Part shown: positions 24,001 to 27,000 of the stretch, piece by piece
Layout: every line of letters starts with the position of its first letter
Position numbering within the stretch: position 1 is the stretch's first letter
Assembly: GCA_963707915.1 (NCBI GenBank)
Contig: OY970178.1
Span: forward strand, 96,001-160,000
Reading direction: 5' to 3'
DNA length: 64,000 bases
Origin: Candidatus Eiseniibacteriota bacterium
GTDB taxonomy: Bacteria > Eisenbacteria > RBG-16-71-46
Program-made: the position numbers

Positions 24001-27000
24001 CCGCTCGAGAACACCGGCCTGAGGCTGCTGCTCCACCGCATCGGCCTCGACACCGGTTCCAGCTTCGGCGGGCTGCCGGAGGGAGTGGGCCACGCGTTCT
24101 CCGACGAGGCCTGCCTGGTCGTGGACCAGGCCCTGGGCGGGGGATGGAGCGCGTGGGTGATGGGCGGCTACGCGCGTCCGCTCGAGGCCGCGAAGGCGCT
24201 GGTGGGCGAGGCGCCGTCCGGCCAGCTGTTCGTGAGCCTCACCTACAAGTTCGACAGCGCCGGCGGCTCGGAAGACTGACGCCGGCGTGCGTGGGCGGGC
24301 GGCCGCGGCGGCAGCCGGGGCCGCCCGCCGTCCTTGCGGCCGCGCGCGCGTGTCACCCCAGCCCCGTCCCCAGCCCGCCCCGCAGCGCGAGCCCGAGGGA
24401 CAGCGCCAGCGCCAGGGCGCACAGCACTCCCAGTGCCCGGAGCGCGAGCGCGGGGCGCGGACCGCCGAGCCGCCCGCTCAGCGGGACCACGGCGCCGATG
24501 AGCGCGCCGCTGGCGAGCCCCACGGCGTGGGCGACGTTGTCGGTCCCGAGCCGCGTGAAGCCCGACACCATGCCCTGCCCGAGCAGGAAGAGCAGCGCCG
24601 CGCCCAGCGCCCGGGCGCGCCCCGGGGCGAGCCGGTGTCGCAGGCGGAACGCGCCGGCCAGCAGGGCGCCCCCGAGGGCGAAGATCGCGCCCGAGGCTCC
24701 GACGCTCAGGTTGAGCGCCGATCCGTGCTGCGAGGTCCGCCACAGCAGGCTGCCCAGCGAAGCGGTGCCGCCGCCGAGCGCGAACACGATCCAGAAGGCC
24801 CAGCGCGTGAAGATGCGCTCGACCGCCGGTCCGAAGATCATCATGCTGGTGGCGTTGAAGAAGACGTGCGCGGCCCCCGCGTGAACGAAGGTCGAGGCCA
24901 GCAGGCGCCACGCGGTGTCGAGCGGGGCGAGCCCGGTGGCGTTCGCGCCCCAGAGCAGGTAGGCGGCCGGGTCGCCGATCTCGTTCCTCGCCGCCAGCAC
25001 GGCGAAGATCGAGGTCCACGCGAGCAGATGCAGCGCCGTGCCCCAGGGCGGCACGCCGCCCACGGCCGACCACAGCTCGACCGGCGGAGGTTCGTCGGGA
25101 TCGGGGGGCAGGAAGCCCGCGTCCTCGAGCCCCATGGATGCGGACTCGTCGGGATCGAAGGTGCTCGCGGGGCCGGTGACGTCGCGGCGGTCGTTCTCCA
25201 CGCATCGCACTCTGCGCCCGGCCCGCGGGGTCGGGCAAGCCGGGCTCAGCCGGGCCGGTGTCGTCGCCCTGGAGCGCGAACTGCCGCAGGGCGTGTTCGA
25301 CCGGGCCCGCGTCGCCGTACGGTGTTGGCCTTTGAAGCCGTTGTGCGGCTTGATGTTGTAGTCTCCGCGGTCCCGCGACCGAGGACCCCGGTTGCCTTCC
25401 CGCCGCGGATGCCTCATAGTCTCCGCGTCTTCGGTTGATTGGGATGTGGGTACGACGTTTCGATTCCGCCAGGGACACCAACCCTGGCGTTTCTGTTCAC
25501 CCGCATCTCGTCAGCAGAAGTACCGGTCACTGTGACCGGCCGTCGCCGCCACGTGAATGGGCGGCAAAGAACAGGGTCCTCGGACCCGGCATCAAGGAGT
25601 TTCAAGTGGCTCGTGGCACCGTGAAGTGGTTCAACGAAGCGAAGGGGTTCGGTTTCATCTCCCAGGAGGGTGGCGAGGACGTGTTCGTCCACTTCTCGGC
25701 GATCAGCGGCGACGGCTTCAAGACGCTGGCTGAGGGCGAGGCGCTCGAGTTCGATGTCACGCGTGGCCCGAAGGGCCTCCAGGCGGCGAACGTCCGCAAG
25801 GTGTAACCCGCTCCGGGTACCACTTCACGCCATCGAGGCGGCGTCCCCCCGGACGCCGCCTCAGGCGTATCCCGGCCCGAGGCCCTCAGCGCCCCAGCAG
25901 CGTGAGCAGGATCTCGAAGCCGATGAGCAGGACGATGACGATCTCCAGCATCTCGGCGCGCCGCGCCTGCGACTCGGCGTTCAGCATGCCGTAGCTGTCG
26001 CGCAGGATCGCGAGCTTGCGGTCGATGCCGCGCCGCCAGGTGCCCCCGCGGAAGATCTCGAGCGCGGCGGCATAGATGCGCGCCAGGAAGACGTCGTCCG
26101 TCACCTTGAGCGAGTTCTCGACCCGCTCGACCAGTTCCGTGGCGTCGGCGACCCGCGTCTGCAGGTCCGCCAGCACCCGGCTGAAGCCGCGCGCGAGCAG
26201 GTGGATGCCGCGCCGGGCGTCGGCGACCCGGGTGTAGATCTTCGGGATCTCGGCATCGAGCAGCGCGTCGTCGAACCGCAACTCGAGCAGCTGCGCGTTG
26301 GCGAACTCGAGGACGTACTGGACGTCGGTGTCCTCGGTGGCCGGCTCCACCACCAGCGCGGCGTTCCAGGTGAGCACCGCGAGGTCGTCCTCGAAGTACG
26401 AGAAGCGCTGCGACATCAGCTCGCGATGCGTCGCCGCAGAGAGCGGCCGCGATTCGCCCACCAGCAGCCGCGCGATGTCCTCGTCGCGCAGGGCGTCCGC
26501 CGGAAGCCGCGCGCCCGCGCCGTCCTCGAGGCGGTTCACGCGGAAGACGATGTAGTCCTCGGTCACCGGCGCCTCGCCCGGCCGCTCGATGGCCGGAGCG
26601 ATGCGCGCGATCAGGCGCTCGCGCACCCGGGCGAAGGCCTCCGCCCAGCCGGGGGCGGTGCTCACGGCCGCGCCGAAGGCGGCGAACTCGCTCCAGGCCA
26701 GGTCCGGCCGGGCCGCGAGCCGCGCCCGCAGGGAGACGACGCCGAAGTCGAAGAGGCGCGCCGAGAACTCGACCTCGCGCGCTTCGTCACCGACGACGAC
26801 CGTCTCGGCGCCGAGGCTCACCGTGACCGGCGGGTTCGGGATCTGGATGGTGTGGGCCTCGCCGCGCACCGGGCGTGGTCGCTCGGGGGCGCTCGAGGCC
26901 AGCAGGCCCACGAGCCGGTCGAGCCGGATCTCGTAGCCGACGTCGTAGAGGCGGTAGACGATGGCCTCGCCGTGCACGCGGGGCTCGGGGGCCGTGGCCG

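Follow-up and report, generated by a model that had tools for sequence, protein, structure and literature searches.

We found that a cold-shock (csp) gene of an uncultured Eisenbacteria bacterium is preceded by a long structured leader, which is a new RNA family. We think it probable that this leader is a transcription attenuator of the cold-shock regulon that uses an intrinsic terminator; cold would release it, and Csp may reset it. The leader has a conserved structure, a conserved promoter position, the anatomy of an intrinsic terminator, an alternative pairing of one terminator strand that is kept in diverged classes, and a constant association with cold-shock-type genes. All positions given below refer to the window, the whole 64,000-nucleotide stretch of DNA that was analysed.

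Results

The leader is the 5' UTR of a csp gene

Positions 25427–25605 are the ~179-nt 5' UTR of a csp gene and lie behind a conserved promoter (Table 1). Transcription is predicted to start at ~25427. A hexamer of the form NANANT, in most cases GATACT or GATAGT, precedes the G of the 5' box in 66 of 72 relatives. The distance from a -10-like hexamer to the box is 6 nt in 54 leaders and 7 nt in 14 (68 of the 72), and the spacer between a TTGNNN -35 element and the -10 element is 17 or 18 nt in 71 of the 72. Because the position of the promoter is conserved, we take the box to be the 5' end of the csp mRNA. A strict sigma-70 scan did not call the promoter at 25392–25420.

RNA contigs of relatives (80% likeness), assembled from four metatranscriptome runs, span the leader and the coding sequence, for example from 25443 to 25665 and from 25440 to 25646. 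None of the contigs from these four runs extends upstream of 25426, which is a weak hint only, as assembled contigs do not show starts, ends or levels. Each of the 20 RNA runs covers only a small share of the stretch.

Table 1. Features of the csp gene and its leader, in window coordinates.
Feature	Position	Strand	Description
Promoter	25392..25420	+	-35 TTGCCT 25392-25397, 17-nt spacer, -10 CATAGT 25415-25420
5' box GUCUUCGGUUG	25427..25437	+	Supplies the 5' strand to both helix P1 and the candidate antiterminator; GTCTTCGG at 25427-25434
Hairpin P2	25441..25461	+	GGGAUGU 25441-25447 with ACGUUUC 25455-25461
Intrinsic-terminator-like hairpin	25467..25497	+	CGCCAGGG 25467-25474, loop 25475-25481, CCCUGGCG 25482-25489, U-run UUUCUGUU 25490-25497
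Antiterminator partner of the 5' box	25469-25476	+	CCAGGGAC, within the terminator 5' strand
P1 3' strand	25512..25520	+	CAGCAGAAG, pairs with box 25429-25437, long-range
Hairpin P3	25523..25539	+	CCGGUC, loop ACUGU, GACCGG
Candidate H-type pseudoknot	25541..25565	+	S1 25541-25543 with 25551-25553; S2 GCCGC 25545-25549 with GCGGC 25561-25565
Hairpin P5	25574..25587	+	GGGUC-CUCG-GACCC, just upstream of the SD
SD AAGGAG	25594-25599	+	Read from the sequence
csp CDS	GTG 25606 to stop 25806	+	66 aa; Pfam CSD PF00313, E 1.1e-28

The leader folds into seven conserved helices

The survey's finding was a structured leader with a terminator-like hairpin, shared by four csp genes of this genome. All of the elements that it listed are present (the box, the hairpin with its U-run, CCGGTC/GACCGG, GCCGC/GCGGC and GGGTC/GACCC), and the conserved structure is borne out and proved wider than first claimed, with 46 pairs in seven helices on 72 relatives. 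In the MAFFT alignment (A1) of these relatives, 90.6% of cells are paired, compared with 31–44% for slid partners, and 22 pairs show compensatory changes, compared with 14.3 in shuffles (0 of 500 shuffles were as high). In the model-fitted alignment (A2), 92.8% of cells are paired and 32 pairs are compensatory; the covariation of the hairpins, also claimed before, is seen on both alignments. The survey had missed P1, P2, the second stem of the pseudoknot, the pairing of the box with the terminator 5' strand, the promoter, and the copy at a helicase gene.

The consensus structure was built by hand and then tested. It was adopted because RNAalifold alone, run on the MAFFT alignment, recovered just 25 pairs and proposed a pairing of the box with the coding sequence that shows no compensatory change. 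Single-sequence MFE folds were unlike the consensus and were set aside.

In the MAFFT alignment, hairpin P2 (7 pairs) is paired in 87.7% of cells, the terminator hairpin (9 pairs) in 94.1% and hairpin P5 (6 pairs) in 86.5%, each with 4 compensatory pairs. The long-range helix P1 (10 pairs) is 83.7% paired with 4 compensatory pairs in the MAFFT alignment, and 87.7% paired with 8 in the model-fitted alignment. The 5 pairs of P3 are formed in 99.7% of cells, with 1 compensatory pair (U-A to C-G in 5 sequences).

The two stems of the candidate pseudoknot are each supported, and the 3' strand of S1 lies inside the loop of S2, which is the arrangement of an H-type pseudoknot. In the MAFFT alignment, S1 (4 pairs, of which the window has 3) is 92.6% paired with 2 compensatory pairs and S2 (5 pairs) is 96.1% paired with 3. 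S1 was left out of the covariance model and is still 90.9% paired, with 3 compensatory pairs, on the model-fitted alignment. Loops of 1, 1 and 4–7 nt would be sterically plausible, and S1 and S2 may form together or alternately. The pseudoknot and the conserved unpaired nucleotides would also suit a ligand-binding riboswitch, in which the pseudoknotted 3' domain or the junction senses a metabolite or an ion. We consider a riboswitch very improbable: the downstream genes are only csp and DEAD-box helicase genes, which share no metabolite, and the expression platform (the box and the terminator) precedes the pseudoknot domain instead of following an aptamer.

The survey had reported that the leader matches no Rfam family, and our search agrees. 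At E <= 10, the sole real match is RF01766 (cspA), with 31.1 bits and an E-value of 3.9e-6. This score does not reach the gathering score of 78, and the match, which spans 25571–25865 (P5, the coding sequence and a hairpin after the gene), is mostly coding sequence. The 5' part of the RF01766 model did not align to the 5' box.

The partners of the 5' box

The 5' box is near-invariant among the 72 leaders, and a duplex scan identified the terminator 5' strand and the P1 3' strand as its best partners, with a peak of -10.1 kcal/mol at the P1 site. The survey had instead paired the GUCUUCGG box with the SD ~190 nt downstream, and a box that sequesters the SD would control translation. This idea draws on a short complementarity of CUUC with GGAG. 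However, the mean best duplex of box and SD is -3 to -4.4 kcal/mol (12-nt windows), no better than the leader background, compared with -9.3 and -10.1 kcal/mol elsewhere, and the SD pairing shows no compensatory change, whereas the box has a covarying partner in P1. Thus, the SD pairing did not hold up, and we regard translational control by this route as scarcely credible. The box also matches the P3 3' strand (GACCGGAC), where 93.4% of cells pair, a value equal to the shuffle mean (273/500), and no covariation is seen. We treat this match as a chance complementarity of conserved columns.

A candidate upstream helix would compete with the terminator hairpin

The claim of a terminator-like hairpin with a U-run was confirmed. 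A terminator scan found the hairpin at 25467–25489 followed by TTTCTGTT (2 sites in 1 kb, compared with 0.4 expected). The stem is GC-rich and 8–9 bp long, the U-run follows it directly, and the whole lies between the promoter and the start codon. After the stem, a mean of 6.9 of 9 nucleotides are U, compared with an overall U fraction of 0.21; most relatives have a stronger U-run than this genus (UUUCUGUU).

The 5' strand of the terminator is also complementary to the box. At seven of its eight positions, the box pairs with CCAGRGAC in 65 or more of the 72 leaders. For a nascent RNA that ends at the terminator 5' strand, the MFE structure pairs at least 5 box nucleotides with that strand in 85 of 91 distinct leaders; with the 3' strand added, the terminator is in the MFE structure of 87 of the 91. 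As modelled, then, an alternative helix that uses one strand of the terminator would form first, as it does in an attenuator.

In the main class of leaders, just 1 pair of the antiterminator helix has changes in both partners, a result that 190 of 500 shuffles equal. The main-class helix shows no covariation because its columns are near-invariant. The diverged leaders of family f18 have a different box and a different terminator (CCUG[U/A]CGG with GCCGCAGG, and AGCAGGUGG with GCCGCCAGCU), and their terminator 5' strand pairs with an upstream box in 26 of 26 analysable leaders. Judged from sequence, support for the putative antiterminator comes only from this comparison between classes. The helix has one imperfection per class, and this is true of all classes (C.A, which in the window is 25432 with 25471; a bulge; or A.A).

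The modelled equilibrium favours the terminator state over the antiterminator state by ~8 kcal/mol, and therefore read-through must be kinetic. The modelled barrier from the antiterminator to the terminator is 9.1 kcal/mol (14.8 RT) at 37 °C and 12.4 kcal/mol (22.5 RT) at 5 °C. RNA helices in general show such a rise at low temperature, and it is not particular to the csp leader.

Covariation supports both P1 and the terminator hairpin, and the full-length RNA can contain the two together, which suggests another way to read the same helices. The leader may exert its effect post-transcriptionally, as the E. coli cspA thermosensor does; the hairpin and the U-run would then be an arm of a three-way junction (P1, P2 and the hairpin) that sets half-life, through a paired 5' end, and translation efficiency, with no regulated termination. 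P1 does pair the extreme 5' end of the predicted transcript. Additionally, the paralog at C1:724329 is without the whole terminator module and keeps a P1-like pairing and the 3' domain. The E. coli cold box pairs a distant downstream sequence at 10 °C, a pairing considered protective of the mRNA according to the accessible portion of the source (PMC9411577). However, no feature of an intrinsic terminator is missing from the hairpin, and a junction arm has no need of its U-run (~7/9). Post-transcriptional control also gives no role to the strict conservation of the stem 5' strand and to the complementarity with the box that is kept across classes. Lastly, the modelled accessibility of the SD is flat with temperature (0.53, 0.53 and 0.58 at 5, 20 and 37 °C), and a thermometer that masks the SD was rejected on these values. 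We regard purely post-transcriptional action as rather unlikely, although it deserves to be taken seriously.

Distribution of the leader and its association with cold-shock genes

A BLAST search of 25389–25606 against the own genome found all of the four copies that the survey had named, at 100%, 79%, 73% and 79% (the last over the 3' 84 nt only). By tblastn, the genome has six csp-like genes, two of them without such a leader. The covariance model adds a fifth match (48.4 bits), and the gene immediately behind it encodes a DEAD-box helicase.

The leader is more widespread in Eisenbacteria than the 13 of 40 genomes reported before. BLAST found it in 84 of 206 genomes, and the covariance model found it in 94 of 151 genomes of the phylum, in four families, with 1–5 copies per genome; family f18 has it in 41 of 41 genomes. 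With the same model, the leader was found in 0 of 53 genomes of 14 other families. Of the stretches listed by a contig pattern scan, 21 were checked, namely those whose titles name other phyla and two unlabelled MAG stretches in which the match was unusually long. None of the 21 exceeds 13.6 bits in the model, and we discarded the pattern matches outside the phylum as chance. Among the matches of the contig pattern scan, the leader is restricted to Eisenbacteria.

The survey had left unchecked whether a csp gene follows the leader in relatives. A csp coding sequence directly follows in 73 of 73 distinct leader stretches. The leaders are 189–203 nt long as trimmed here, and their distance to the csp start varies little. 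Of the 30 helicase loci of the family, 5, including that of the own genome, have the leader without an intervening csp gene. The helicase leader is a diverged copy with a different 3' part. When the regions before the 30 helicase genes were searched for the main-class module with a strict regular expression, the own copy was the sole match (1 of 30); the covariance model is the better tool. As the same 5' module stands before a DEAD-box helicase gene, it is probably an element of a cold-shock regulon.

The promoter, box, P2 and terminator could also constitute a separate gene for a small RNA of ~70 nt, which might titrate Csp or act in trans; csp would then be transcribed by incidental read-through or from its own promoter. 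Such a module is indeed complete, with a promoter, a structured RNA and a canonical terminator. It occurs in several copies per genome, and it also precedes the helicase gene, where the 3' part is different. Against a separate gene, the box is connected with sequence beyond the terminator by the compensatory changes of P1. No part of the leader varies more than the stretch from the U-run to P1, and this stretch has no conserved promoter-like block. The tight spacing to the csp start also speaks against it, and the module is always upstream, on the same strand, of a cold-shock-type gene (csp or DEAD-box helicase only). We find a free-standing small-RNA gene improbable.

Discussion

We propose a model for the csp leader as an attenuator that addresses how the terminator is avoided, how cold could favour read-through, and how Csp could restore termination. 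We infer that transcription terminates at the U-run and that cold or Csp controls this step. Four segments would take part: the 5' box (segment 1), the terminator 5' strand (segment 2), the terminator 3' strand (segment 3), and a distal segment behind the U-run (segment 4). In the emerging RNA, segment 1 would pair with segment 2 and, together with P2, would form a long imperfect hairpin, the antiterminator. If the 1:2 helix is still in place when the polymerase passes over the U-run, the terminator (2:3) could not nucleate, and csp would be transcribed. If the 1:2 helix opens in time, the more stable GC-rich terminator would form and transcription would stop after ~70 nt. After read-through, segment 4 would capture segment 1, forming P1, and 2:3 could then form harmlessly. 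The mature leader would contain P1, P2 and the terminator hairpin, followed by P3, the pseudoknot and P5, and its SD would be open.

The second part of the model involves the signals. Cold would slow the exchange of 1:2 for 2:3 and so favour read-through. Once Csp, an RNA-melting protein, has accumulated, it may open the weak, mismatched 1:2 helix and bring termination back, which would be a negative feedback. B. subtilis CspB prefers the high-affinity heptamer GTCTTTG/T, as given in the available sections of two reports (PMC1904285; PMC7825780). The box shares GUCUU with this motif in the main class only. A sequence-specific Csp site is doubtful because the f18 box neither has the motif nor lies at the 5' end. 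More speculatively, the leader might be a protein-free 'cold-ON' RNA thermosensor of termination, in which the imperfect antiterminator is kinetically trapped in the cold, the polymerase escapes, and Csp later melts the helix. The module would then coordinate a regulon of csp and DEAD-box helicase genes, and the ~70-nt RNA may be a sponge for Csp. We put this extended version forward only tentatively.

In classical attenuators of the trp and T-box types, mutually exclusive helices share one strand of an intrinsic terminator, and the upstream helix forms first. The helices of the Eisenbacteria leader likewise share a terminator strand, and the upstream one comes first. In contrast to the classical attenuators, no leader peptide, tRNA-binding element or ligand-binding element is evident here, and a fourth segment, the P1 3' strand, would recapture the antiterminator strand.

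Delaleau and co-workers reportedly described, in Molecular Cell in 2024, Rho-dependent transcriptional switches in the cspA, cspB and cspG leaders of E. coli and Salmonella. The Eisenbacteria leader is like these switches, so far as the accessible account of them goes, in that a long csp leader is combined with premature termination as a means of repression, which for the Eisenbacteria leader is our proposal. It is unlike them in that Rho acts on a Rut site there, whereas a canonical intrinsic terminator and an RNA antiterminator are found here; no similarity of sequence or model to the switches as described was seen. The presence of a canonical intrinsic terminator in the leader argues for a mechanism other than a Rho-dependent switch. 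In the E. coli cspA, cspB and cspG leaders, premature termination is relieved by cold, which restructures the leader, and restored by CspA, and DeaD is listed among the cold-regulated targets, according to the portion of a review at hand (PMC12360218).

The leader also resembles the E. coli cspA thermosensor (RF01766). Both have a long 5' UTR (~179 nt here and 145–160 nt in E. coli cspA, cspB, cspG and cspI, as stated in the available part of PMC6719143) and a conserved box near the 5' end that is common to several cold-shock genes. As in the E. coli cold box, local and distal pairing partners are found (PMC9411577, in the portion available). Unlike the Eisenbacteria leader, the E. coli cspA leader has no intrinsic terminator, and its box has a different sequence. 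S. aureus CspA is described, in the part of the source at hand, as an autoregulator that binds a U-rich motif located in a leader hairpin of its own mRNA and reduces its expression (PMC5815144). That autoregulation involves processing by RNase III in the text available (PMC5815144), whereas a terminator is found here and the binding of Csp is putative.

Premature, Rho-dependent termination in csp leaders has been recognised as a central control point only recently. To our knowledge, cold-shock regulation is understood almost solely in E. coli and a few Firmicutes. If our model is true, an uncultured and unrelated phylum has arrived at this same control logic by other means, combining an intrinsic terminator with an RNA antiterminator. 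The switch would be compact, at ~70 nt, and could be tested with RNA polymerase, a thermostat and purified Csp. The RNA family itself is well supported, with its 46 conserved pairs and a pseudoknot, and in genomes without any cultured representative it marks the members of a probable cold-shock regulon.

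A conserved leader upstream of cold-shock genes

The csp gene of the window encodes a cold-shock protein and is separated by about 470 nt of intergenic DNA from a divergent rhomboid-family gene (see the table). BLAST of positions 25389-25606 against the genome recovered the four leader copies that the survey had named, although in one of them similarity is confined to the 3' 84 nt. Six csp-like genes were found in the genome by tblastn, two of which lack such a leader. The survey's finding that the leader belongs to no Rfam family held, as nothing matched the leader itself at E<=10. 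Membership in the cspA family RF01766, the one real hit, was rejected: the score was 31.1 bits versus a gathering score of 78, and the alignment fell mostly on the CDS. The Rfam model placed its terminator at 25835-25862, 3' of the csp stop codon, where a GC-rich hairpin of 12 perfect base pairs has a CCCC loop but no U-run. A convergent minus-strand ORF ends near 25886, downstream of csp.

BLAST matches to the leader were present in 84 of 206 genomes of the phylum, and 70 stretches were fetched from relatives. Whether a csp gene follows in relatives had been left open; a csp CDS lies directly behind the match in all 73 distinct leader stretches, which include those of the window genome. Leader length is tightly conserved, at 189-203 nt when trimmed from 2 bases before its conserved 5' octamer (the box) to 15 nt inside the CDS. 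A covariance model matched 94 of the 151 genomes that are at least 85% complete: 57/59 in family f1, 6/6 in f2, 2/3 in f3 and 28/29 in f18, compared with 0/53 in 14 other families of the phylum. In a separate tally of f18, the model matched 41/41 genomes. Both f2 tallies, from BLAST and from the model, count one unpublished genome (G073), whose sequence was not used. Matching genomes carry 1-5 copies.

A pattern scan covered 185,579 species genomes. We tested 21 stretches from it, comprising those with titles naming other phyla and two unlabelled MAG stretches whose matches were unusually long. None exceeded 13.6 bits under the covariance model, and all were rejected as chance matches. One leader-bearing record (L168) is titled Candidatus Saccharimonadaceae, but its coordinates coincide with those of G104, which is placed in the window's own family, and the title is probably a mislabel.

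Predicted features of the csp locus (positions in the window)
Feature	Position	Strand	Remarks
Rhomboid-family gene	24353-25135	-	divergent, upstream of csp; PF01694, E 2.7e-24
Candidate promoter	25392-25397; 25415-25420	+	-35-like TTGCCT, 17-nt spacer, CATAGT; read from sequence, upstream of box
P1, long-range helix	25429-25437 with 25512-25520	+	5' strand in box
P2	25441-25447 with 25455-25461	+
Putative terminator hairpin	25467-25474 with 25482-25489	+	followed by UUUCUGUU
P3	25523-25539	+
S1	25541-25543 with 25551-25553	+
S2	25545-25549 with 25561-25565	+
P5	25574-25587	+
Shine-Dalgarno (SD)	25594-25599	+	AAGGAG; sequence of window
csp CDS	25606 (GTG) to stop 25806	+	66 aa; Pfam CSD, E 1.1e-28

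Conserved structure of the leader

We built a structure of 46 pairs in seven helices by hand and tested it on two alignments. The first, a MAFFT alignment of 72 leaders (A1), excludes the csp paralog at C1:724329, since homology is lacking in its 5' half. The second (A2; 97 rows, 92 distinct) was fitted to the covariance model and thus leans toward the model's structure. The proportion of paired cells was 90.6% on A1 and 92.8% on A2, compared with 31-44% in slid controls on both. Compensatory changes were found in 22 pairs on A1 versus 14.3 in shuffles (0 of 500 shuffles as high) and in 32 of 46 pairs on A2, and the covariation score was 0.193 versus 0.142 on A1 and 0.222 versus 0.141 on A2.

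The survey's structure did not include P1, P2 or S1. P1 encloses the terminator and is kept by the variants UCUCGGG/CCCGAGA, GUCUCUGGU/AUCGGGGAC and GUCUUGGGU/ACCCGAGAC in A1. S1 and S2 cross as the stems of an H-type pseudoknot do, leaving loops of 1, 1 and 4-7 nt; although S1 is absent from the covariance model, 90.9% of its cells are paired on A2 and three of its four pairs show compensatory change. In most relatives P5 is GGGUCUUCGGACCC (A1 consensus), which embeds the same octamer as the 5' box, GUCUUCGG; its loop in the window is CUCG.

The survey had proposed that the box pairs with the SD. When the duplex energy of the box was computed along the whole of each leader in windows of 12 nt, the mean best value at the SD region was -3 to -4.4 kcal/mol, which is background, leaving that helix unsupported. 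The values were -10.1 kcal/mol for the P1 3' strand, -9.3 for the terminator 5' strand and -9.4 for the P3 3' strand. The last of these pairings was rejected, as it showed no covariation and equalled its shuffles. Modelled SD accessibility was flat with temperature (0.53, 0.53 and 0.58), which argues against an SD-masking thermometer.

A putative terminator and a competing candidate antiterminator

The hairpin before the U-run has the anatomy of a textbook intrinsic terminator, judging from its sequence. The stem is GC-rich and 8-9 bp long and includes a covarying R/Y pair (A-U in 31 leaders, G-C in 29). The 9 nt directly 3' of it hold a mean of 6.9 U, compared with an overall U fraction of 0.21; the run is weaker in the window's genus. 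What is unusual for a terminator is that its 5' strand, CCGCCAGRGAC, is almost invariant. The box is complementary to this strand: seven of its eight positions are paired in 65 or more of the 72 leaders, around a constant C.A mismatch. In nascent-RNA folds that reach the terminator 5' strand, the box occupied that strand in 85 of 91 distinct leaders and, together with P2, gave a single long hairpin (mean -15.3 kcal/mol). Extending the folds by the 3' strand brought the terminator into the MFE structure of 87 of 91 (mean -23.0).

No covariation was detected for the antiterminator helix in the main class, the leaders like that of the window, because the columns are invariant. The diverged f18 leaders supply the variation that the main class lacks. 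Loci L186-L212 (f18) and L183 form two further classes with other box and terminator sequences and the same architecture. In one f18 class, the terminator strand GCCGCAGGRG faces the box CCUG[U/A]CGG; in another, the strand is GCCGCCAGCU and the box AGCAGGUGG. The nascent fold paired the terminator 5' strand with the upstream box in all 26 analysable f18 leaders (of 27; one did not match the terminator pattern). The helix carries one imperfection, a mismatch or bulge, in every class. Pairing is conserved across classes; the box thus imitates the terminator 3' strand imperfectly, and the P1 3' strand imitates the terminator 5' strand. The main f18 class has an extra hairpin, CCGGRCGA...UCGYCCGG, behind the U-run.

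The csp paralog at C1:724329 (minus strand, L004; outside the window) has TTGACA and GATACT, spaced by 17 nt, as a near-consensus promoter, together with a box-like CUUGGUC able to pair with GACCGAAG and a complete 3' domain. A GC-rich insert replaces the P2-terminator module, making this paralog a natural 'terminator-less' variant.

Promoter and 5' end

In 66 of the 72 relatives, the G of the box is preceded by a NANANT hexamer, most often GATACT or GATAGT. Six nucleotides separate the two in 54 leaders and seven in 14 (n=72), and 71 of the 72 have a TTGNNN element at a spacing of 17 or 18 nt. Only 16 of 72 -35 elements match TTGACA at four or more positions, and a strict sigma-70 scan of the window did not call the promoter. 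As these elements sit just before the box, we predict that GUCUUCGG is the very 5' end of the csp mRNA, near 25427, with a UTR of about 179 nt.

Relatives' contigs from four metatranscriptome runs span leader and CDS (25443-25665, 25440-25646, 25482-25637 and, with one mismatch, 25524-25624). Depth upstream of 25426 was zero in all four, which gives a weak hint on the 5' end, since contigs cannot show ends. The first 100 nt of the CDS (25602-25700) recruit hundreds of metatranscriptome contigs of many other organisms at 80-90% likeness, so depth there is uninformative on the window's organism.

Leaders of DEAD-box helicase genes

A fifth copy in the genome, outside the window (contig 45483-45670, minus strand; 48.4 bits with the covariance model), consists of the box GUCUUGGG, P2, a terminator with UUUUCGCUU and P3, followed by a divergent 3' part. 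It lies directly upstream of a gene for a 444-aa DEAD-box helicase (locus contig 44100-45670, minus; L217 115-1688). The model matched upstream of 8 of the family's 30 helicase loci, including the window genome's own. In three of the eight, a csp gene lies between match and helicase gene. In three relatives (L228, L229 and L233), a csp gene and its leader directly precede the helicase gene on the same strand, which may make a csp-helicase operon. In five of the 30, the leader directly precedes the helicase gene, with promoter, box, P2, terminator and P3 in the sequences; this is a lower bound because the model, being full-length, favours the leaders of csp genes. Four relatives (L219, L220, L236 and L242) share the window genome's arrangement.

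Discussion

The leader is a real, well-supported and uncatalogued cis-regulatory RNA family. A full-text literature search found no paper joining Eisenbacteria and cold shock, and on csp-associated candidate structured RNAs it returned only general motif-discovery papers. By logic, the nearest system is that of the E. coli and Salmonella cspA/B/G leaders, described in PMC12360218 as a Rho-dependent switch in which termination at 37 C is lifted by cold-induced restructuring and restored by CspA; the Eisenbacteria leader, in contrast, would use an intrinsic terminator. In anatomy, the cold-box-bearing 5' UTR of E. coli cspA comes closest; the accounts in PMC6719143 and PMC9411577 describe a long UTR and a shared 5' box with a local and a distal partner. 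The Eisenbacteria leader nevertheless lies outside RF01766. S. aureus CspA is described as repressing itself via a U-rich hairpin of its own 5' UTR (PMC5815144).

We consider attenuation to be the best explanation of the leader, and a probable one. In our model, four segments, namely the box (1), the two terminator strands (2 and 3) and the P1 3' strand (4), would form three alternative pairings: 1:2 as antiterminator, 2:3 as terminator and 1:4 as P1. The 1:2 helix would form first and block the loop-proximal nucleation of 2:3. If it is intact while the polymerase passes the U-run, transcription would go on, and segment 4 would then take up the box, giving a stable final fold of P1, P2 and the hairpin. 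As the terminator state is modelled to be about 8 kcal/mol more stable than the antiterminator state at equilibrium, the decision between termination and read-through must be kinetic. The modelled direct-path barrier for the exchange of 1:2 for 2:3 is 9.1 kcal/mol (14.8 RT) at 37 C and 12.4 kcal/mol (22.5 RT) at 5 C; this rise is compatible with cold favouring read-through, but the same slowing would apply to any exchange of helices.

Csp proteins melt RNA. We expect that Csp would act on the 1:2 helix, which is weak and imperfect, and open it in preference to the GC-rich terminator, and we propose that this would provide negative feedback. The preferred site of B. subtilis CspB, as described in PMC1904285 and PMC7825780, has GUCUU in common with the box. 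We base nothing on a specific Csp site because the f18 boxes differ from the GUCUU box and, by promoter alignment, lie 10-14 nt inside the transcript. We infer the switch as a whole, including its cold and Csp steps, and it is plausible that cold, Csp or both are the signal controlling the leader. Its presence before both kinds of gene suggests that the leader is a regulon element, common to csp and DEAD-box helicase genes.
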